Positions 3,461-62,291 of a stretch of 64,000 nt of DNA are shown one piece after another. The notes beneath the pieces were generated by a model. The model was not told the origin of the DNA and searched no databases. It saw only the letters and a list, made by a program, of their open reading frames with translations. Position 1 is the first letter of the stretch. Each line of letters opens with the position of its first letter. The position numbers and the translations under genes are program-made. Where the stretch lies: NCBI RefSeq assembly GCF_003018255.1, contig NZ_CP027440.1. One strand, given 5' to 3'. The DNA is from Escherichia coli (GTDB taxonomy: Bacteria; Pseudomonadota; Gammaproteobacteria; Enterobacterales; Enterobacteriaceae).

Positions 3461-5104
3461 TTATGCCGTCCGGGCAACGGCATCACGCGAAGCAGCATCG
3501 CGCTCTTCGCCTGTCAGCTCGCTAAGTTGCCCGTTGCGCATTTCCAGCAGGCGGTCGGCGTGGATAAAGTAATGATCATCATGACTGATGGCGAAAATAG
3601 TTTTACCCATCTCCTGCATCAGCGGCAGCAGCACCTGATAAAACTCACGACGGAAGTGTGGATCCTGATCCGCCGCCCATTCATCCAGCAGGATAATATC
3701 GCGTTCTTCTGCCAGCGCCAGCAACAGCGCCACGCGTTTTTTCTGCCCTTTTGATAACTTCAGGTTAACAATACGCCCGTTGCTTAACTCAAGCTTATGA
3801 GCCATTTTCAGCTGCGCCAGCCACTTCTCAACCAGTTGCGGGTTAGCGGGTTGCCCCTCCGGCCCCAGCAGTTGATCAAACAGCCAGACATCGGTAAACA
3901 CTGCCGAAAACAGTTTTCGATAATCTTCCGGTTGTTCGCCGCTGACAGGTTTGCCATCCAGCAAGATTTCGCCATTTTGTGGCTGGTACAAGCCCGTCAG
4001 CAACATCGCCAGCGTCGATTTTCCACTACCGTTGCCACCAATCAGAAACAGCAGCTCGCCACGTTTGATGGTGAGGTTAATTGGCCCAACGGAAAACGCG
4101 TTATCCTGATAGCTAAACGTCACGTTACGCAGCTCCAGCGTTTGCCAGTTGGGAAAAGCCTGCGGGCGCGGAAACTCTGCTTTGAAAGGCGCGAGCGCGA
4201 ATTTGTTCAGCTTGTTAAACGCCACCTGCGCCGTCAGCAGCGTCGGCAATGCGCCAACCGCCGAAAGCAGCGGCGTACGCAGGAATAACAGCGTCAACGA
4301 ATAGGTCGCAGCAACGTTGGTATCAGCCCAACCGAGACTGTTCGCCATCCAGAACACCAGGCCGATAGCGCCCAGCATCATGATGTTTGACCAGTTCACG
4401 GCACTAAGATGGAAGGTGTCTGCGCGAATAATATGATGGCGATACTCTTGCGCATCAGGAATGTAGAGGTTGTTAAACACATACTCGGCGCGTTCACGGT
4501 TCAGAGTCAGCTCTTTGCGCCCTTCGAGTACAGTTTGAAAATCCGTGTACAGCTTATCTTCGGTTTCACGCAGGGTCGCCATATGTTTGTACACCCGCGC
4601 CACCAGCACAAAACCGCCCCAGATGGTGACTGCCATCCAGATAGCCGTTACCAGCAACATTTTGCCCGACAGCATCCACAAATACGCCGCTGAACCGATA
4701 GTGAGAATGATCCCCTGCACCAGTTCCGGCAGACGCACAAAAGCAATGGTGATATTGCGCACATCGCTGGTTAATCCCGCCAGCAACGAGGCGCTACCGA
4801 GTTGTTCAATGCGCTCGACGTGAGTATCGAGAATCCGCTTGATAAATTCACTACGCAGTCGGTAAACGAAGTGATGCCCCAAAGTGGTGAGCGCCAGTTG
4901 CGATCCGAGAGTGACGGCCATCAACAGCAGCAATAACCCCAGAAACTCCGGCAATACCAGCAGACTGGTATCCGCCGTTTCGATAAGGCGCTGATTGATA
5001 AAAGCAATTAAGCCAATGCCTAATGCCGCACTGGCGAGGCTTAGCGCCATCACACTGATAAATGGCCAGCGATACTGCCGCCAGACAAGTACAAGAAGTT
5101 CCAT
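3461..5104 (-). CDS. yojI: ABC transporter fused permease/ATPase (microcin J25 efflux type)
   Basis: 547-aa ORF with N-terminal transmembrane region and C-terminal Walker A (GGNGSGKST), ABC signature (LSKGQKKR) and Walker B (ILLLDE). Confidence 0.88.
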
Positions 5105-5179: not shown

Positions 5180-5830
5180 TTATTCTTTTTTACCTGCCTG
5201 ACGGAATGTCAGGTTGTAGCGGCAGTCGGTGGTGAGTGGATGAAACCCCGCTTTCAACGGTTGAATACCGTGATAAAACAGCCGCGATTCACCGCCCCAT
5301 ACCACCACATCGCCATGTTCCAGCAACAATCTTTTTAGCGGATCATTTCGTTTCAGGCCGCCAAATTGAAAAATCGCGGGTAAGCCCAGAGAAACAGAAA
5401 CAATCGGCGCGCGCAGATCCGGTTCGTCTTTATCCTGATGCAGCGACAGTTTCGCGCCAGGAGCGTAGCGGTTGATAAGACAAGCATCTGGCTGGAAATC
5501 TGGATAGCCCGCCGCCGTAGCCGCACGTTGACATAAATGATGAAAACTCTGCGGCATGGCGGGCCACGGTTTATTTGTTTGCGGATCAATGGGCGAATAG
5601 AGATAACCCTGCCGATGGGTGGTCCAGCCCAGACGCCCGCAGTTGGTCATCGCCACCGACATGGTATATCCGCCTGGAGTGACCATCTGGCGAAACGGCG
5701 ACTGGCTGGCAACGTCATTAATATCGCGGATCAGTTGCTCCGCAGCGTTAAAAGCAAAACGGTGCAAAATCACCGCTCCAGCCGCCAGTGGTTCTTGCCA
5801 CGGTTCAGCATCGGCAAACAGATCCAACAT
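5180..5830 (-). CDS. alkB: AlkB, Fe(II)/2-oxoglutarate-dependent DNA/RNA demethylase
   Basis: 216-aa ORF; start codon overlaps the ada stop by one base (ada-alkB operon arrangement); sequence recognised as AlkB. Confidence 0.9.
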   Translation of the reverse strand: MLDLFADAEPWQEPLAAGAVILHRFAFNAAEQLIRDINDVASQSPFRQMVTPGGYTMSVAMTNCGRLGWTTHRQGYLYSPIDPQTNKPWPAMPQSFHHLCQRAATAAGYPDFQPDACLINRYAPGAKLSLHQDKDEPDLRAPIVSVSLGLPAIFQFGGLKRNDPLKRLLLEHGDVVVWGGESRLFYHGIQPLKAGFHPLTTDCRYNLTFRQAGKKE

Positions 5831-47007: not shown

Positions 47008-48366
47008 TTAGCCTCCGTTGCGTTTTTGCAGTAATTCCTGATGGCGACGTTTTTCGCCAATCATCACAACAATCAACAAGATAACCGCGAGAATGCTGCC
47101 GCCAATCATTACCATAAAGCCGCCATCCCAGCCGAAGAAGTCCACGGTGTAGCCAACAATCGCGCTCGCCGCCACCGAACCGCCCAGGTAACCAAACAGC
47201 CCGGTAAAGCCCGCTGCCGTACCTGCCGCTTTTTTCGGTGCCAGTTCCAGCGCATGCAGACCGATCAACATCACAGGACCGTAAATCAGGAAGCCGATAA
47301 CAATCATACAGATCATATCGACGTTCGGATTGCCCGCCGGGTTCATCCAGTAAACGATAGTCGCGATGGTCACCAGTGTCATAAAGAAGACGCCGGTGGC
47401 CCCACGGTTGCCACGGAAGACTTTATCCGACATCCAGCCGCACAGCAGGGTGCCCGGAATGCCCGCATACTCATAGAAGAAGTAGGCCCAGGAGGATTTA
47501 TCCAGCGCGAAGTGTTTCACCTCTTTCAGATAAGTCGGTGACCAGTCGAGGATGCCGTAACGCAGCAGATAAACGAACACGTTGGCGATAGCGATGTACC
47601 ACAGCAATTTGTTCGGCAGCACGTACTGCATGAAGATTTGCTTCGCAGTCAGCTCCTGTTCCGCTTTTTCGTTATAGTCGTCCGGATAATCATTTTTGTA
47701 CTCTTCGATCGGCGGCAGGCCACAAGATTGCGGGGTATCGCGCATCATCGCAAAGGCGAACAGTGCCACCAGAATGGCGCAGAAAGCGGGCATATAGAGC
47801 GCCGCGTGCCAGTCATTGAACCAGGCCATCCCCAGCAGGAACAGCAGCGGCGGAATACCACCACCGACGTTGTGCGCACAGTTCCACACTGACACAATGC
47901 CGCCACGTTCTTTCTGCGACCACCAGTGCACCATAGTACGACCACACGGCGGCCACCCCATCCCCTGGAACCAACCGCAGAGGAACAACAGTACAAACAT
48001 CACCGCAATGCTCGACGTCGCCCACGGCACAAAGCCCATAAACAACATCACTGCCGCCGCCAGAATCAAACCTGCGGGCAGGAAAACGCGCGGATTCGAG
48101 CGATCCGACACCGAGCCCATGATGAATTTCGAAAATCCATAAGCGATCGAGATCCCAGAAAGCGCGAAACCTAAATCACCGCGTGAGAATCCCTGCTCGA
48201 CCAGGTAAGGCATAGCAAGCGCAAAGTTCTTACGAACCAAATAGTAAGCAGCATAGCCAAAGAATATCCCCAGGAAAATTTGCCAGCGCAATCGACGATA
48301 AGTCGGATCGATCTCCGCGGCAGGTAAGCGCGCTTTGTGTGGCGCTGGTTTAAAAATACTCAACAT
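47008..48366 (-). CDS. glpT: Glycerol-3-phosphate:phosphate antiporter (MFS); apparently intact
   Basis: 452-aa 12-TM MFS protein recognised as GlpT; first gene of glpTQ. Confidence 0.93.
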
Positions 48367-48638
48367 TGATAGCCTCCGTGGCCCGTGGTCTTATTTATGA
48401 TTAACAGCCTGATTCAGTGGGAGAACCTGCCGTTTCTTGAGTTGCCGCGATGTTAAGAAAACATTCATAAATTAAATGTGAATTACCGCACACATTATTA
48501 AATACGATGGTTTAAATGTTCAGAATGACGCATGAAATCACGTTTCACTTTCGAATTGTGAGCGAATATGCGCGAAATCAAACAATTCATGTTTTTACTA
48601 TGGCTAAATGGTAAAAAACGAACTTCAGAGGGATAACA
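48367..48638. promoter_or_regulatory. Divergent glpTQ / glpACB control region (candidate CRP and GlpR operator sites)
   Basis: AT-rich 272-bp spacer between divergent operons with CRP-like TGTGA-N6-GCACA and several AATGTTC/GAACTT motifs resembling GlpR operator half-sites; individual sites not resolved. Confidence 0.5.
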
Positions 48639-52703
<4,065 letters not shown>

Positions 52704-52717
52704 AACTCCCATCTGAT

Positions 52718-52749
52718 GCCCGGTAAGCATGTTGTTACCGGGCATTTTT
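52718..52749 (+). terminator. Rho-independent terminator after glpC
   Basis: Hairpin GCCCGGTAA-N8-TTACCGGGC followed by ATTTTT. Confidence 0.75.
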
Positions 52750-52896
52750 GCGTCCACGATTCCGCGCTCAATGTATACGTTGCAACGCAGTGAAAATTCC
52801 TCTGAAAACGTCTCGCAAAGGCTGAAACTGGCAGATGTCAAAGGCCTGGGATAACCGTAATGTCGCGTTATCATAAATATCAGGTGACGGACAACC

Positions 52897-53856
52897 ATGA
52901 CCGAATCAACAACCTCCTCCCCGCATGATGCGGTATTTAAAACCTTTATGTTCTCGCCCGATACGGCGCGAGATTTTCTCGAAATACATCTGCCAGAGCC
53001 GCTGCGCAAGCTTTGCAACCTGCAAACCTTACGCCTGGAACCCACCAGCTTTATTGAAAAAAGTTTACGCGCTTACTACTAGGATGTTTTGTGGTCGGTG
53101 GAAACCAGCGACGGTGACGGCTATATCTACTGCGTGATTGAACATCAAAGTTCTGCAGAAAAGAATATGGCTTTTCGACTAATGCGCTATGCCACTGCCG
53201 CCATGCAACGTCACCTGGATAAAGGCTATGACAGAGTTCCGCTGGTGGTGCCATTGCTGTTTTATCATGGCGAAACCTCGCCCTACCCGTACTCACTCAA
53301 CTGGCTGGATGAGTTTGACGATCCGCAACTTGCCCGGCAGTTGTACACCGAAGCTTTTCCGTTGGTGGATATCACCATCGTACCTGACGATGAGATCATG
53401 CAACATCGGCGTATAGCTCTGCTGGAACTGATTCAAAAGCATATTCGCGACCGCGATTTAATCGGTATGGTCGACAGGATCACCACGCTTTTGGTTAGAG
53501 GCTTCACTAATGACAGCCAGCTACAAACGCTGTTTAATTATCTGCTGCAATGCGGCGATACCTCCCGTTTCACCCGCTTTATTCAGGAGATTGCCGAACG
53601 TTCACCACTACAAAAGGAGAGATTAATGACTATTGCTGAACGGCTACGGCAGGAAGGACATCAAATTGGCTGGCAGGAAGGTAAATTAGAAGGCTGGCAG
53701 GAGGGGAAATTGGAGGGTTTGCAGAAAGGCAAAGTAGAAGGTATGCATGAACAAGCCATTAAAATTGCCTTGCGCATGCTGGAACAGGGCTTTGAACGTG
53801 AGATTGTGCTGGCGACAACCCAACTCACTGATGCTGATATTCCGAACGGTCATTAA
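52897..53856 (+). pseudogene. yfaD: yfaD/rpnE, Rpn-family (transposase_31 / PD-(D/E)XK) nuclease gene interrupted by one in-frame TAG at 53080-53082
   Basis: 61-codon ORF ([17 protein letters not shown]...LRAYY*) and the following 255-codon ORF (from TTG 53089, [21 protein letters not shown]...) are in the same frame, separated only by a TAG. Confidence 0.6.
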
Positions 53857-53868
53857 AAGGAGAGATTA

Positions 53869-54042
53869 ATGACTATTGCTGAACGGCTACGGCAGGAAGG
53901 ACATCAAATTGGCTGGCAGGAAGGCATGCATGAACAAGCCATTAAAATTGCTTTGCGCATGCTGGAGCAGGGCATTGATCGTGATCAGGTGCTCGCGGCC
54001 ACTCAGCTAAGCGAAGCCGATCTGGCAGCGAATAACCACTAA
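53869..54042 (+). CDS. ypaA: YpaA, small Rpn C-terminal-domain paralogue (tandem partial copy of the yfaD 3' end)
   Basis: 57-codon [38 protein letters not shown]...; about 70 nt including the AAGGAGAGATTAATG leader are identical to 53613-53680 inside yfaD. Below the 60-aa cutoff of the ORF track. Confidence 0.65.
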   Translation: MTIAERLRQEGHQIGWQEGMHEQAIKIALRMLEQGIDRDQVLAATQLSEADLAANNH

Positions 54043-54051
54043 TTAACACAG

Positions 54052-54080
54052 GCCCACAGCCGATCCCCATGGGCCTTTGA
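54052..54080. terminator. Candidate bidirectional terminator between ypaA and rhmA
   Basis: Hairpin AGGCCCA-N13-TGGGCCT followed by TTTGATATCAA, between convergent genes. Confidence 0.45.
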
Positions 54081-54082
54081 TA

Positions 54083-54886
54083 TCAATAACTACCTTTTAC
54101 GCGTGGCCCATTTTTGCCTGATTTAAACATCGCCAGTCGTTGATCCAGGGCATCGCTGTAGAGCATCGTGTCAACGCCAACAGCGACAAAGTTCGCTCCC
54201 CACGCCAGGCATTGCTGCGCCATATCAGGAGCCACAGCCAGAAAACCAGCCGCTTTACCCGCAGCACGGATCCGCCGAATGCTGGTTTCAATAATTCGCT
54301 GCACTTCCGGGTGCCCGGCGTTATCCGGGTAGCCCAACGACGCAGAAAGATCCGCAGGTCCAATAAACACGCCATCAATCCCTTCAACATCGAGGATTTC
54401 GTCCAGGTTATCCAGTGCCGTTTTACTTTCCACCTGCACCAACAGACAAAGCGAATCGTTGACTTGCGCCATGTAATTCTCAATGCGTCCCCAGCGCGCA
54501 GCCCGTGCCACACTGGCCCCAACACCACGCTCACCGTAGGGAGGATAGCGCGTGGCAGACACCACCTGACGTGCCTGATCGGCAGTATCGACCATTGGGA
54601 TCAGTAGAGTTTGCGCGCCAATATCCAGGACTTGTTTAATCAGCGGCTTACTGCCTTCCACCGGACGGATCACGGGGTGGCTGGCATAGGGCGCTACCGC
54701 CTGTAGCTGGTGATAAAGATCCTGAATGGTGTTTGGCGCATGCTCCCCGTCAATCAGCAACCAGTCATAACCGGAAGTGGCGGCAATTTCTGCCATATAG
54801 GCAGTCGTTGAGCTTAACCACAGACCAATTTGCACTTCGCCCTTGCGTAAACGTTCTTTAAAGGGATTGGTTAATAATGCGTTCAT
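54083..54886 (-). CDS. rhmA: 2-keto-3-deoxy-L-rhamnonate aldolase
   Basis: 267-aa HpcH/HpaI-family aldolase ORF recognised as RhmA (YfaU). Confidence 0.88.
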
Positions 54887-54902
54887 CGTGTTCCTTAACT
54901 AT

Positions 54903-56039
54903 TTAATGATGTGCCACGTCGGTCTGCGCAACAGTGCGATTTACACGCAGAGTGAAAATAATCAGCGAACCGATGACCGCCACCGCTGCCAGCGTCAGTA
55001 ATCCCGCCGCATCGCTGGAAAATAACGTTTCTGCTTTCACGCGCAGGATCGGGGCAATAAACCCGCCCACTGCACCAAACAGGTTTATAAAACCAATCCC
55101 CGCAGCCAGCGCCGTACCGGAAAGAAGCTGTGTCGGCATCGTCCAGAACACTGGCTGTACGGCAATAAACCCGATGGCTGCAACACACAGCGCAACGATC
55201 GCCAGTAATGTCAGCGCCGCGACATTACGCCGCTCGCCGGTTTTATCGGAATAGCGCGGAATAAGCCAGGTCCCAAACAAGGCCGCGACCCACGGAATGG
55301 CGGTGACCACCGACGCCGTAAAGCCCACTTTTGTCCCCAACAATGCAGCAACCTGCGTCGGCAGGAAGAAAATTAATCCGTAAACCGCCACCTGAATGGT
55401 CAGGTAGATAATCGCCAGTTGCCAGACTCGGCCATTACGCAGCGCATCGCTCAATCGAGAAGTCACTTTCTGTTGTTCTTCACTTGCCAGTTGGTTGATA
55501 AGCAACGTTTTTTCTTCTTTACTCAGAAAACGTGCCTGCTCCGGCGTGTCATCAAGCCAAAAGAATGTGAATACCCCAGCGCCGACTGCCAGCAATCCTT
55601 CAATCACAAACATCCAGAACCAGCCGGGATGCCCCATAAATCCATGCATCTCCAGCAGCGCGCCGGAAAGCGGTGATCCCAGTGTTAACGCCAACGGTGC
55701 GCCCATATAGAACAGCCCCATAATGCTGGCGCGATTACGCTGCGGAAACCATTGCGAGGTGAGATAAATCATACCAGGGAAGAACCCGGCCTCCGCAGCA
55801 CCAAGCAGAGTACGAACGATCAGAAATTTCGCTTCAGTATCGGCCCATGCCATGGCTGCCGAAAGAAATCCCCACAGCAGTGTTGTCGTACCAATCCAGG
55901 TTCTTGCCCCCAGTTTGCGCATCAAAAGATTCGCCGGAACACCCAGAAACGCATATACCACAAAGAAAATGCCTGCTCCCAGACCAGCCCTTCGATAATA
56001 CTTTGCTGTACAGCTGCAGGTTGCCAGGCAAGCAGGCAT
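54903..56039 (-). pseudogene. rhmT: rhmT (yfaV) L-rhamnonate MFS transporter, 5'-truncated remnant
   Basis: 378-codon ORF is MFS-like from GAGIFFVVYAFLGVP onward, but the first ~20 codons are non-hydrophobic and overlap the rhmR remnant; the expected first TM helix is absent. Confidence 0.65.
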
Positions 56040-56464
56040 TTACCTATTCCGGAGCGATAAAGCGAAAGGCTTTTTCCTTCATGGGAACGCACGCTGATAG
56101 TGGCTGATGACTCCACTTTCAAAATGTAATAAGCGCTGCCGTTATCAATAATCCCCAGGTGACATAACAGCCCAGTGGTATCCATCAGTTGCGTCAAACG
56201 CGGTCGAGCCAGTTCCCGGAGATCCATCTTGCTTAACGCATGACCGGAAAGCTCCACCAGCCTGGTCCACAAACAAAAATTTTCCTGGTGATCAAGGCTA
56301 AGAAAACGCTGACGCCTGAGTTCATTAAGCAGCAAATAGGCCGTGCTTTTAGGGATCCCCAATGTGTCAATGATCGTCGCAGCACTACAGGGGCCAATGC
56401 GGGCAATCAAATTGAGAATATCAATAGCCCGTGTCAGGGCGGGAACTTTGCTTGATTCCAACAT
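55922..56464 (-). pseudogene. rhmR: rhmR (yfaX) IclR-family regulator, 3'-truncated remnant
   Basis: 180-codon ORF has an intact IclR-type HTH (TRAIDILNLIARIGPCSAATIIDTLGIPKSTAYLLLNEL) but ends after a partial effector domain with an out-of-frame tail (FSLWYMRFWVFRRIF) that is rhmT sequence read in another frame. Confidence 0.65.
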
Positions 56465-56683
56465 ACTGGACTCCAGTCTTAGATACTGGAATCAGTCTCG
56501 TTGCTCAGGGGGAGTAAAATTGTGAAGCTCATCAAATCCCGCTCCTCGTCCAGCGGACTGGAGAAATTACGCACAAATTTGTGAATTAGCGCACGGATTT
56601 TTTCTTATTGAGTACAACAGGTTGGACAAATTTTGCCGGAGGGGGAATGTGCCGGTGCAGTAAACCGGCACAGAGTGGCGGAA

Positions 56684-57886
56684 TCAGACAGATAAGGTCA
56701 TGGACTCAACAACCTCAATCCAGCCATGCTCACTGGCGATGTCCTGGCCGTTTAACCAACGGCGCAGCATATTCAGTGCCATCATTGCGCACACTTCCTG
56801 ACGGATAGCCAGGCTGTAGCGTGTAGTGCTGAAACGCACACGCAGAGCGAAAGTGCCATCTGGCGTGGATAGCGCAAAGTTGAGATGCTCGTTCTCGAAA
56901 CCCGAAACAGCCAGTGCCAGCCCGGCAAAATGGTTGGCCCGCCGTTCTGTAATCCAGTGCGCAGTTTGCGCCAGGGTTTCTTCCTGTGAAGGAACCACTT
57001 CACACGCCAGCAATGGAGCACCTGCGCGAGAAAGTTGCAAAGCCAATAAACCGCCGGTGAATTGCTCGCTCAACGTCAGGCTGAACTGGCGGTTTTGCAA
57101 TTCGCGACTGATCTGCGCGGGCAGTCCTTCGGTGCCTTCGAAAATCACGCTCTGTCCGGCAACACGTTTAACGTCCAGCCACAGTTTTTCCATCGCCTGT
57201 TGCTCGCTTGCCGGTCCGGTGAGTTTCAGTTCGATGATAGGCATTGAGGAGCGATAACCCATTGTTACGCCCGGCGGCAGTTGTAGAGTGTCCAGGCTTT
57301 GTGCCAGATCGCTTTCCGAACGACCAAAGGTAGTTAAACGCAGACAAACCGGCGGCTGTGGTAAAGAAAAACGCTCGCGCAGGCGCGGCAGGATTTCGTG
57401 CTCGACCATCACCTTAAATTCTGACGGTACGCCGGGGGTAAAGAACATCAGGCAACGATTAAGCTGCACGGCAAAACCACAGGCGGTGCCTACCGGGTTA
57501 TTGATAAATTCAGCACTGGCAGGTAGCTCCGCTTGTTTACGGTTGCTCGGTGCCATTACTCGTCCACGTTCGTGGAAATAGCGTTCCATCTCTTTGAGCC
57601 AGGCTTCATGCAGCACCAGGCCTTCACCTTTTGCTGTCGCAGCGGCGAGTGCGCTTAAATCATCACTGGTCGGCCCCAGCCCGCCGTTAACGATCAGCAC
57701 ATCGGTGTGCTGACTCCGTTCGCGAAGAATGGTGACTAAGTCATCAAGGTTATCCCCCACCGTATTGCGGCGAGATAATGGCAACCCCTGATGAAAGAAA
57801 AAATCGGCCAGCCAGGCAGCGTTAGTGTCAACGATTTGCCCGTGTAACACTTCATCCCCGGTGGATAACATTTCCACTTTTAACAT
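56684..57886 (-). CDS. yfaY: YfaY, CinA-like protein (MoCF-binding domain)
   Basis: 400-aa ORF beginning MLKVEMLSTGDEVLHGQIVDTNAAWLA, typical CinA N-terminus. Confidence 0.85.
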   Translation of the reverse strand: MLKVEMLSTGDEVLHGQIVDTNAAWLADFFFHQGLPLSRRNTVGDNLDDLVTILRERSQHTDVLIVNGGLGPTSDDLSALAAATAKGEGLVLHEAWLKEMERYFHERGRVMAPSNRKQAELPASAEFINNPVGTACGFAVQLNRCLMFFTPGVPSEFKVMVEHEILPRLRERFSLPQPPVCLRLTTFGRSESDLAQSLDTLQLPPGVTMGYRSSMPIIELKLTGPASEQQAMEKLWLDVKRVAGQSVIFEGTEGLPAQISRELQNRQFSLTLSEQFTGGLLALQLSRAGAPLLACEVVPSQEETLAQTAHWITERRANHFAGLALAVSGFENEHLNFALSTPDGTFALRVRFSTTRYSLAIRQEVCAMMALNMLRRWLNGQDIASEHGWIEVVESMTLSV

Positions 57887-57985
57887 GGTTATCTCCTGCT
57901 TTTGTTATCGAATCACTATAACGCAAAGGGAGACAGGGCGTAGTAACAAACTGAATGGCGCGACAGAATGCCGCGCCGGAAGGGA

Positions 57986-58528
57986 TCAGAAACTGGCGTT
58001 AACCCCCACATACGGGCCGTCAGCCACGGCGTTGTCGCGGTTACCGTCTTTACCAGAAAGGTTCAGGTAGCGATAACCCGCCTCAATACTGACTGGACGC
58101 ATAATGGTGTAACGCGCGCCAACATTCGCTTCCTCATAACTTTGAATACCGCTGGAGAGCGAATCCGGAGAGTAGTAATACTCGCCAAACAAACGGAAGC
58201 TGTTGCCAATTTTCCACTGCAAACCACCTCCTACCGCTGCGGCATAACCTTCATCGCCGTAATTCGGGTTGGTGTAAACGCCTTTTCCGCCAACGGTCGC
58301 CATTAACGGCCCGAGAGGCAGATTCAACCCCAGCCCCACGCCCGCGACGTCACCGTCGTCGTCGTTATGTGTCCAGTTACCGCTTAACGCCAGGCCCGTT
58401 GATTCAGTCCCAAAACCGACACCAATATTGGTGTATTCTTTACCCGCCTGGCCGCTGATGCTCATTGCATTGACCGATGCAGAAACCAACAGCATTCCGG
58501 CCAGACCTGCTAGCGCAATTTTTTTCAT
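57986..58528 (-). CDS. yfaZ: YfaZ, outer-membrane beta-barrel protein
   Basis: Start set at MKKIALAGLAGMLLVSASVNA (signal peptide, 180 aa) inside the 205-codon ORF; ends with aromatic C-terminal residue F. Confidence 0.8.
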   Translation of the reverse strand: MKKIALAGLAGMLLVSASVNAMSISGQAGKEYTNIGVGFGTESTGLALSGNWTHNDDDGDVAGVGLGLNLPLGPLMATVGGKGVYTNPNYGDEGYAAAVGGGLQWKIGNSFRLFGEYYYSPDSLSSGIQSYEEANVGARYTIMRPVSIEAGYRYLNLSGKDGNRDNAVADGPYVGVNASF

Positions 58529-58806
58529 TTTCCCCTCTCCCACAAGCAATAAATCAAAATTCCCAAAGCTGCGGGATTGTACTGCCTGGCACAGAGGATT
58601 CAATGAGCGAAAAAAGGGATCTAGTCACTTATTGTAACTAAATACTTCTTAAATAATTAAACGCCGAAAAAATAAACATACTTTATCGATACACACAAAA
58701 ATAATAATAAGTGCAGTTATCATCGCAAAAGAGATTACTGTCACTTTCACATATTTCTGAGTTACCGTATTCTCATGGTTTCTTTTTATTTATAAGGAAT
58801 ACCCCT

Positions 58807-59232
58807 GTGCGACAACGGACTATTGTATGCCCTTTGATTCAAAATGATGGTGCTTATTTGCTGTGTAAAATGGCCGACGATCGCGGCGTTTTCCCCGGTC
58901 AATGGGCGCTTTCGGGTGGCGGCGTAGAGCCTGGCGAACGAATTGAAGAGGCACTACGCCGCGAAATTCGCGAAGAACTGGGAGAACAGCTGCTTTTGAC
59001 AGAAATCACGCCGTGGACCTTCAGCGATGATATTCGCACCAAGACGTATGCAGATGGTCGCAAGGAAGAGATTTATATGATTTACCTGATTTTTGACTGC
59101 GTTTCTGCCAACCGAGAAGTGAAAATAAACGAAGAGTTTCAGGACTACGCGTGGGTAAAACCTGAAGATCTGGCGCACTATGATTTGAATGTCGCCACCC
59201 GAAAAACGTTACGTTTGAAAGGTCTTCTGTAA
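58807..59232 (+). CDS. nudI: NudI, Nudix nucleoside triphosphatase
   Basis: GTG start giving [19 protein letters not shown]... (141 aa); Nudix box [24 protein letters not shown]. Confidence 0.8.
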
Positions 59233-59270
59233 CAATGATGACAGCCATTACTGGCTGTCAGATTGAAAAT

Positions 59271-59873
59271 TTAGTGGTTAACGAATTCCCCATCCAGATA
59301 AACTTTGCCTTTTTCCACATGCATGACTAAACCATCCAGATAATCAGGTTTAAATGTCGCATCACGCTTATCTTTAGCAATATATGTCAGGCAATGATTA
59401 TGGGTGAAAATAACGATATTTTTATCAGGCGCTTTGCTTTGTAAGTCCTTAATTGCACTATAAATCTCATTACCGCACTGAAGAAGTCGTTTATCTACCG
59501 TCAGCTTTTTACCCGCTGAAAACCAGGTCGCCGACTGAATGGTCCGGACGGTATTACTGGAATAAAGATCGAAATCAGGGATATCAGCACTAAAAGCGTT
59601 GCCCAGTTCACGGGCATCCTGGGTACCTTTAACCGTAATACCTGTTTTATCTGACAAGCATTGGTTGGTTGAACGATCGCAACGTTCAGCATGGCGAAAC
59701 AAAACGACAACCGGATGCTGCTGTGCCAGTCTGGCCAGCGTTTTATTGTCGATACGTGGCAAACCATTGCTACTCCAGGCGGCATGAGTACCCAGTCCGG
59801 CAATTGCAGCGAGCGCCAGTAAAATGATGAAATATTTTTTTGACTTCAACGAAGAGCGGCAAAAAGCTAACAC
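59271..59873 (-). CDS. ais: Ais (PmrG), LPS core heptose(II)-phosphate phosphatase
   Basis: 200-aa product from a GTG start inside the 219-codon ORF ([20 protein letters not shown]...); histidine-phosphatase RHAER motif ([11 protein letters not shown]). Confidence 0.8.
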
Positions 59874-60065
59874 GTAAACTCCACCTATAGACAAGCGCAA
59901 CCAGACAATTACCGTGAAATTGAGCGACATTTCTGGCGATAATTAGCAGTTGGTGTAATATTAAAAATCCTGCGATGCCGGCAAAATGCCTCAAAATTTT
60001 GCCAAATGCAAAGCCTAAATAAGAAAAAATATAAAAATTTCAATATTTACGTCTAATATTAGTTT

Positions 60066-60083
60066 CTTAAGGTTAAGTTAATA
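60066..60083 (+). promoter_or_regulatory. Candidate PmrA (BasR) box of the arnB promoter
   Basis: CTTAAG-GTTAAG-TTAAT direct hexamer repeats about 80 bp upstream of arnB, resembling the CTTAAT-N5-CTTAAT PmrA box. Confidence 0.55.
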
Positions 60084-60162
60084 TTCTATCCTTAAAATTT
60101 TGCTCCAAATGGCAAAATATACACAACACTCTTTATAGCAAATATAAGTGGACAGGTATTCA

Positions 60163-61320
60163 ATGGCGGAAGGAAAAGCAATGTCAGAATTTTTGCCTTT
60201 TTCGCGACCAGCAATGGGCGTGGAGGAACTCGCTGCAGTTAAAGAGGTTCTCGAATCCGGTTGGATCACAACCGGTCCGAAGAATCAGGCGCTTGAACAA
60301 GCCTTTTGCCAGTTGACGGGAAATCAGCATGCCATCGCGGTCAGTTCAGCCACCGCCGGAATGCATATCACGCTAATGGCGTTGGAAATTGGCAAGGGCG
60401 ATGAAGTGATTACGCCTTCCCTGACCTGGGTTTCAACCCTCAATATGATTTCCTTGTTGGATGCAACGCCGGTAATGGTGGATGTCGACCACGATACGCT
60501 GATGGTCACGCCTGAAGCGATCGAGTCAGCCATTACGCCACGCACTAAAGCCATCATTCCGGTGCATTATGCCGGTGCGCCAGCAGATATTGACGCCATT
60601 CGCGCCATTGGCGAACGTTACGGCATCGCAGTTATCGAAGATGCTGCCCATGCCGTCGGTACGTATTACAAAGGCCGACATATTGGCGCAAAAGGTACCG
60701 CTATTTTTTCGTTTCACGCCATCAAAAATATTACCTGTGCGGAAGGTGGCCTGATTGTTACAGATAATGAAAACCTTGCCCGCCAGCTACGGATGCTAAA
60801 ATTTCACGGTCTGGGTGTCGATGCCTATGACAGACAAACCTGGGGCCGTGCACCGCAAGCTGAAGTCTTAACGCCGGGCTATAAGTATAATCTGACCGAT
60901 ATTAACGCCGCGATTGCCCTGACCCAGTTAGCCAAATTAGAGCACCTCAACACCCGTCGGCGCGAAATTGCTCTGCAATATCAACAAGCACTGGCAGCTC
61001 TCCCTTTTCAGCCATTAAGCCTTCCCGCCTGGCCGCACGTTCACGCCTGGCATCTGTTTATTATTCGTGTCGATGAACAACGTTGTGGTATCAGTCGCGA
61101 TGCGTTGATGGAAGCGTTAAAAGAAAGAGGCATTGGTACCGGGTTACATTTCCGCGCCGCTCACACACAAAAATATTATCGCGAGCGTTTTCCCACGCTG
61201 TCGTTACCGAATACCGAATGGAATAGCGAACGCATCTGTTCGTTGCCGCTGTTCCCGGATATGACCACCGCCGATGCCGACCGCGTCATCACAGCCCTTC
61301 AGCAACTCGCAGGACAATAA
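60163..61320 (+). CDS. arnB: UDP-4-amino-4-deoxy-L-arabinose:oxoglutarate aminotransferase
   Basis: DegT/ArnB-family PLP aminotransferase; start set at [10 protein letters not shown] (385 aa; alternative ATG at 60181 gives 379 aa). Confidence 0.9.

Positions 61321-62291
<971 letters not shown>

Follow-up and report, generated by a model that had tools for sequence, protein, structure and literature searches.

An Escherichia coli rhmRDTA (yfaXWVU) locus as the probable decaying remnant of two deletions between short direct repeats

The window analysed here is a 64-kb stretch of E. coli DNA, and positions are those of this stretch unless another locus is named. Three reading frames on its minus strand are related to the rhmRDTA operon. 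The first, rhmA (yfaU; 54083-54886), is intact and codes for a 2-keto-3-deoxy-L-rhamnonate aldolase of 267 residues; just 3' of it, on the same strand, lies a terminator-like hairpin (54050-54076; 10-bp stem with 6 GC pairs), recognised by a consensus scan only, which is likely to mark the end of the operon. The second is a chimeric ORF of the MFS type (54903-56039, minus strand; 378 aa), in which 19 N-terminal codons of out-of-frame rhmR DNA precede a remnant of rhmT (yfaV; 54903-55982). As judged from protein alignment and from the DNA blocks shared with an intact locus (L001, see below), this remnant comprises native codons 55-429 minus codons ~314-329. The third is a remnant of rhmR (yfaX; 55922-56464, minus strand) coding for 180 aa, of which residues 1-165 are native (DNA 55971-56464) and the last 15 are a frameshifted tail derived from rhmT. 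The MFS and IclR-type ORFs overlap by 118 nt. Beyond the rhmR remnant, the rhmR-yfaY spacer with the upstream control region of the operon (56465-56683, minus strand) is retained and colinear with intact loci, and is followed by yfaY (56684-57886).

Two intact loci served as references: that of strain 200164 (L001), which is 99.9% identical to the window, and that of the K-12 derivative EC600 (L002). In both, the order on the window strand is rhmA-rhmT-rhmD-rhmR, with products of 429, 401 and 260 aa for rhmT, rhmD and rhmR, respectively. This is the order that an earlier note on this DNA, made from the sequence alone, had given; the ORF layout which it described (the 118-nt overlap, an IclR-type ORF of 180 codons and no dehydratase ORF) was also borne out by the sequence. 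A megablast search with 54000-56700 gave matches in 5,410 of 5,426 complete E. coli genomes, most of them spanning ~4,488 bp annotated as yfaU, yfaV, rhmD and yfaX. Since RhmT and RhmR have 429 and 260 residues in the references, the short forms in the window are not natural ones. The earlier note had asked whether RhmR might naturally have 180 residues, or RhmT naturally begin with MPACLATCSC; neither form was found in any of the intact loci L001, L002, L010 and L013-L016, and both were ruled out.

Alignment of the window with L001 and L002 revealed one gap of 1,739 bp, extending from 3520/3532 to 5258/5270 of L001. The left alignment ends at 55982 and the right one begins at 55971, so that 12 bases fit both breakpoints. 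These bases, GCCTGCTCCCAG, are present twice in L001, at 3520-3531 and 5259-5270, with one copy in rhmT and the other in rhmR; base-by-base comparison with both L001 breakpoints showed that the window retains a single copy, at 55971-55982, which we call junction J1. On the coding strand the repeat is CTGGGAGCAGGC, read as W-E-Q-A in RhmR (codons 162-165) and as L-G-A-G in RhmT (codons 55-58). Residues 1-54 of RhmT, the whole of rhmD and residues 166-260 of RhmR were lost with the deletion. The alignment to K-12 sequence proposed in the earlier note thus placed the breakpoints at a 12-bp repeat, and the deletion of roughly 1.7 kb expected there proved to be one of 1,739 bp. The loss of the rhmT 5' end and of all of rhmD was as described in that note, whereas what is missing from rhmR is not its 3' half but 95 of 260 residues (~37%). 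Likewise, the note was right about a microhomology junction read in the WEQA and LGAG frames, but the 13 nt that it took to be shared are 12, the final A belonging to rhmT only.

Among exact direct repeats in the 4.2-kb intact locus, the 12-mer ranks second in length; a 13-bp repeat is also present inside rhmT. Shuffled versions of the 4.2-kb locus are expected to contain 0.58 repeated 12-mers, so that the existence of the repeat as such is at chance level and fortuitous. Its position at the breakpoints bears on the mechanism all the same, since two breakpoints placed at random would agree over 12 bases with a probability of ~4^-12. The pair of repeats lies exactly 1,739 bp apart in six of the seven intact loci examined, and most strains could therefore undergo the same deletion.

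A second deletion, unnoticed in the earlier note, was found within the rhmT remnant. It removes 48 bp in frame at 55199/55200 (2701-2748 of L001). Where this segment is intact, the 8-bp direct repeat CGCCAGTA flanks it, and the window keeps one copy of the repeat at 55200-55207 (junction J2). The 16 residues lost, RhmT ~314-329 (LAAGIGIGLSGLLSPV), form a hydrophobic stretch. A 46-mer spanning J2 had no match in the 5,426 complete genomes, a RefSeq set of E. coli to which the strain of the window does not belong. The exact 378-aa product is catalogued for E. coli as WP_106905172.1 and occurs on at most 3 public contigs; contigs with J2 include GCA_005046355.1 (L003), which is 100% identical to the window over 52000-57900, and one of 4.89 Mb. 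J2 is private to close relatives of this strain.

At the protein level, RhmA is identical (100%) to that of the intact locus L001 and scores 594 bits against the NCBIfam equivalog NF007521 (cut-off 441), over positions 1-267 of 267. In contrast to the full-length match of RhmA, the RhmT remnant, whose native part starts at Leu55 in the 378-aa ORF, reaches 210 bits against TIGR00893 (cut-off 395) and covers only profile positions 31-398. IclR-family profiles match the rhmR remnant over the first ~160-175 of their ~250-270 positions only; a protein identical to the 180-aa product carries Pfam HTH_IclR and IclR_C. In a tblastn search of the whole 64-kb window RhmD gave a best E value of 2.6, and no ORF of the enolase superfamily lies between the rhmT and rhmR remnants. 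Of what a functional operon comprises, the locus thus has RhmA; RhmD, full-length RhmT and a full-length RhmR whose effector-binding domain is complete are missing. RhmT was examined by a hydropathy scan; from what is known of MFS anion:cation symporters, its lost N-terminus probably contains transmembrane helix 1.

The stop codon of the rhmR remnant overlaps the native Met74 codon of RhmT as TGATG (55920-55924, minus strand), the stop having been placed there by the deletion. In other carriers of J1, some gene callers start a 355-aa ORF at this Met74 (3543-4610 in L004 and L006). Stop/start overlaps of this kind are typical of translational coupling; here, the overlap is probably coincidental. 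A sigma-70 consensus scan of 54000-56750 gave no promoter match. The rhmRDTA genes have been treated as one transcription unit (PMC6206212), and an RpoN gSELEX site in the K-12 yfaX-yfaY spacer has been assigned to yfaX-rhmD-yfaVU (PMC8743547).

On the gene content, the strain is almost certainly unable to catabolise L-rhamnonate. This compound is a dead-end metabolite in EcoCyc (PMC3781023), and K-12 BW25113, whose locus is intact, reportedly does not grow on it (bioRxiv 10.64898/2026.05.20.726482). Because an intact locus reportedly does not confer growth either, the predicted phenotype is uninformative.

To determine how common the main junction is, we used a 42-mer (55956-55997) designed such that no 28-mer seed could come from one side of J1 only. 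It matched 137 of the 5,426 complete genomes at 100% (~2.5%), so that the survey for the same junction suggested in the earlier note shows J1 to be common; a figure of 143 carriers from a looser 160-bp query is superseded by this stricter count. In a public gene index the exact 180-aa product occurs in 860 blocks. PGAP annotates the IclR remnant of J1 genomes as a partial pseudogene 'missing C-terminus', and names the 394-aa MFS fragment of these genomes 'MFS transporter' (WP_001110518.1). The J1 allele is thus already in public genomes, though undiscussed.

Of the 5,426 genomes, 3,836 contained rhmD DNA and 1,590 (~29%) did not; a segment of rhmR was detected in 3,976. As 3,976 minus 137 gives about 3,836, the J1 carriers hold no rhmD anywhere; these genome counts also answer the earlier note's question of whether rhmD exists elsewhere. 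The rhm genes have been lost in other ways as well. A 3,862-bp deletion has one end within rhmA and the other in the rhmR-yfaY spacer (2046-5907 of L001; 2584-3108 of CFSAN027346, L017) and is carried by ~1,430 genomes, a number estimated from the difference between the megablast and rhmR-segment counts. Further lesions are an IS200/IS605-linked loss of rhmD-rhmR (L018) and insertions of IS1 or IS1203 in rhmT, and an insertion of mcr-1-pap2 in rhmT has been described (PMC6206212). The interval beside rpnE has thus been deleted repeatedly, by the 3,862-bp deletion and by IS-linked losses. Because ~2.5% of the genomes share its junction and ~29% are without rhmD, J1 represents ordinary gene decay. 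It is a common polymorphism rather than a strain-specific one, and a further allele of an operon which is dispensable to E. coli and has been lost repeatedly.

The flanks of J1 were compared among the window, 13 other carriers (L003-L009, L011, L012 and L019-L022) and 7 intact loci. To the right of J1 all compared carriers have one rhmR haplotype in common. A synonymous marker linked to J1 lies at 56174, where the codon for Thr97 of RhmR is ACT in the window and ACC in intact loci. The corresponding A was found in the window and in 10 of the 13 carriers, and a 33-mer centred on it in 111 of the 5,426 genomes. Among 60 genomes sampled from those with this 33-mer, 59 had a truncated IclR gene and one, GF3-3, an intact one. 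At least 27 J1 carriers have G at this position. To the left of J1, at least five haplotypes were found among carriers, and four of the five seen are united by A at 56174. The left flanks begin to diverge close to the junction: 55953, 18 bp from J1, is G in L011 and L019-L022 and A in the window and in the L004 and L005 types. F344, JNE21-003 and MLI114 combine J1 with G at 56174 and with the fifth left haplotype, which differs 18-54 bp from J1.

Taken together, the rhmRDTA (yfaXWVU) locus of the window is very probably a decaying remnant left by two deletions between short repeats, with a single origin most likely for J1. Deletion endpoints that fall exactly on a direct repeat, of which one copy is kept, are the classical signature of slipped-strand deletion as mapped in E. 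coli lacI. Slipped-strand misalignment, a form of RecA-independent recombination at short homologies during replication, would have removed the 1,739 bp and left one copy of the repeat. We infer this mechanism from the repeat signature alone, that is, from a repeat at both breakpoints with one copy kept in each of the two deletions. The first deletion would have taken transmembrane helix 1 from RhmT, and the locus would then have been unable to dehydrate or import L-rhamnonate, with only the RhmA aldolase intact. The 48-bp deletion between the 8-bp repeats came later, at the cost of 16 residues of an already dead rhmT. Damage subsequent to J1 is represented by J2 in the window, by a nonsense change at 55125 in L007 and by insertions of ISEc46 into the rhmR remnant in HUE1, F344, JNE21-003 and MLI114. 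As the upstream region is retained, rhmA may still be transcribed from it, though no functional regulator is left.

J1 most likely arose once and then spread between E. coli backgrounds by homologous recombination. A single origin is favoured because A at 56174 unites carriers with four left-flank haplotypes. It requires a crossover within ~29 bp of J1, since the left flanks of carriers differ from 18 bp outwards and both G and A occur at 56174. The uniformity of the right flank among carriers is weak evidence for a single origin, as rhmR appears to be generally low in diversity.

The same 1,739-bp deletion may instead have arisen two or more times, in which case J1 of the window would not necessarily be identical by descent to that of the other 137 genomes. 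Several observations are in line with this reading: the spacing of the repeat pair, conserved in six of seven intact haplotypes; the five or more left flanks of carriers, two of which differ at 55917, 55941 and 55953; and the private 48-bp deletion, also between short repeats in rhmT, which shows that slippage of this kind occurs here. Moreover, the left flank of the window is identical over 1.9 kb to those of the intact strains 200164 and 2017.09.02CC. The two strains, however, differ from the window just to the right of J1, having T at 55984 (2 bp off), G at 56174 and A at 56297, which means that the allele of the window did not originate as a recent deletion in their background. At these three positions the window resembles the other carriers and not its intact relatives. 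Also against recurrence, A at 56174 is found almost only in carriers and crosses four left-flank types, and the sole intact genome with this A, GF3-3, is on an unrelated haplotype. GF3-3 was considered as the ancestral haplotype and ruled out, having EDL933-like flanks and differing at 56014, 56084, 56262 and 56385; its A at 56174 appears to reflect homoplasy or a small recombination patch. In view of the close crossover that a single origin needs and of the generally low diversity of rhmR, we hold recurrence to be credible, and on balance improbable.

A broader form of recurrence would make the 12-bp pair a deletion hotspot used in several lineages, or the rhm locus unusually prone to deletion owing to its position beside rpnE, a gene for a recombination-promoting nuclease. 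We consider this doubtful. If true, deletion-proneness next to rpnE would explain the loss of rhmD from ~29% of genomes by at least four different lesions.

The reading in which J1 arose once and the locus has been decaying since can also be set against one in which the remnant has been retained for a function. Without RhmR the surviving transcript would be derepressed, RhmA, a promiscuous class II aldolase, would be made constitutively, and selection would maintain rhmA. Consistent with this, rhmA is full-length and free of internal stops in all nine carriers translated (L003-L009, L011 and L012), while the rhmT and rhmR remnants gain further lesions; in addition, the upstream spacer is retained and the rhmR remnant meets Met74 of RhmT in the TGATG overlap. 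But for a gene as short as rhmA (804 bp), in carriers that are close relatives at the locus, intactness is expected by chance. Furthermore, the 3,862-bp deletion in ~1,430 genomes also truncates rhmA, which is thus dispensable in E. coli. We regard a maintained function of the remnant as quite unlikely. That the gaps are artefacts of sequencing or of assembly, by collapse between the short direct repeats that flank both, is scarcely conceivable: repeats of 12 and 8 bp are far too short for such a collapse, 137 complete genomes from independent assemblies have an identical J1, and J2 is reproduced in the independent assembly GCA_005046355.1 and on the 4.89-Mb contig.

Many J1 carriers have ISEc46, an element of the IS200/IS605 type with tnpA and tnpB, at one common site within the rhmR remnant, equivalent to 56297 of the window. 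It is found there in F344, JNE21-003 and MLI114 and also in HUE1, a carrier with A at 56174; in locus coordinates it spans 4442-6093 of L012 and 3383-5034 of L019, L020 and L021. The element is associated with both the A and the G allele of 56174, and with genomes of 4.56 Mb as well as of 5.1-5.3 Mb. Shared descent combined with recombination may account for the common site, as may reinsertion at a specific target.

The neighbouring genes also vary. On the plus strand at 52897-53856 lies rpnE, a gene of the Rpn/YhgA type annotated as 'ISNCY family transposase', with a nonsense change from C to A at 53081 that converts the TCA codon of Ser62 to TAA. This is its only difference from the intact 319-aa rpnE of APEC E14033 (L011). 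As the same nonsense change is present in GCA_005046355.1, a second gene beside the rhm remnant has been inactivated too. Over 53600-54042 (plus strand), the C-terminal part of rpnE has tandem repeats, and a 57-aa ORF that follows rpnE (53869-54042) duplicates the C-terminal HTH of the Rpn protein (PF27070 in equivalent loci). This stretch differs between strains by indels, with 36-73 gap columns over 52000-54000. For the 14 kb from 48000 to 62000 the best identity among the 5,426 complete RefSeq genomes is 99.6%, and only 24 genomes reach 99%. This modest identity raised the suspicion of a Shigella origin, which was rejected because the exact 378-aa product is catalogued for E. coli, on the 4.89-Mb contig among others, and because GCA_005046355.1 agrees fully with the window from 52000 to 57900. 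The yfaY haplotype (56641-57900) is unlike those of other carriers and of intact relatives, with 13-27 differences. The 48000-62000 region is a recombination mosaic.

Pseudogene would be the proper annotation for both the 378-aa 'MFS transporter' and the 180-aa 'IclR regulator' ORF, as each is a fragment; in RefSeq, the MFS fragments WP_001110518.1 and WP_106905172.1 are at present named as proteins. The locus offers a clear case of stepwise decay in an operon that is dispensable to E. coli. J1, the marker at 56174 and ISEc46 form a compact marker set with which recombination between E. coli backgrounds could be followed. The importance of the locus is small outside annotation and strain typing.

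Compared with the rhmRDTA operon of K-12 (yfaX-rhmD-yfaV-yfaU, b2245-b2248), the locus of the window has the same position (rpnE/glpC to yfaY), order and strand, and it keeps full-length RhmA and the upstream spacer; it differs in lacking rhmD, residues 1-54 and ~314-329 of RhmT and residues 166-260 of RhmR. With the J1 alleles of APEC E14033, 2014C-3338 and H9Ecoli it shares the 42-bp junction, the 180-aa RhmR product and A at 56174, whereas the 48-bp deletion, and a left-flank haplotype otherwise found only in intact loci, set it apart from these RefSeq alleles. The other rhm lesions inactivate the same operon as J1, but their breakpoints and mechanisms differ: microhomology at the ends of the 3,862-bp deletion does not exceed 1 bp, as against 12 bp at J1, and the others are driven by mobile elements. 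Finally, both deletions in the window resemble the short-repeat deletions of lacI in having repeats in the parental sequence and one copy kept in the product, although repeats of 12 bp that lie 1,739 bp apart are widely spaced for their length.
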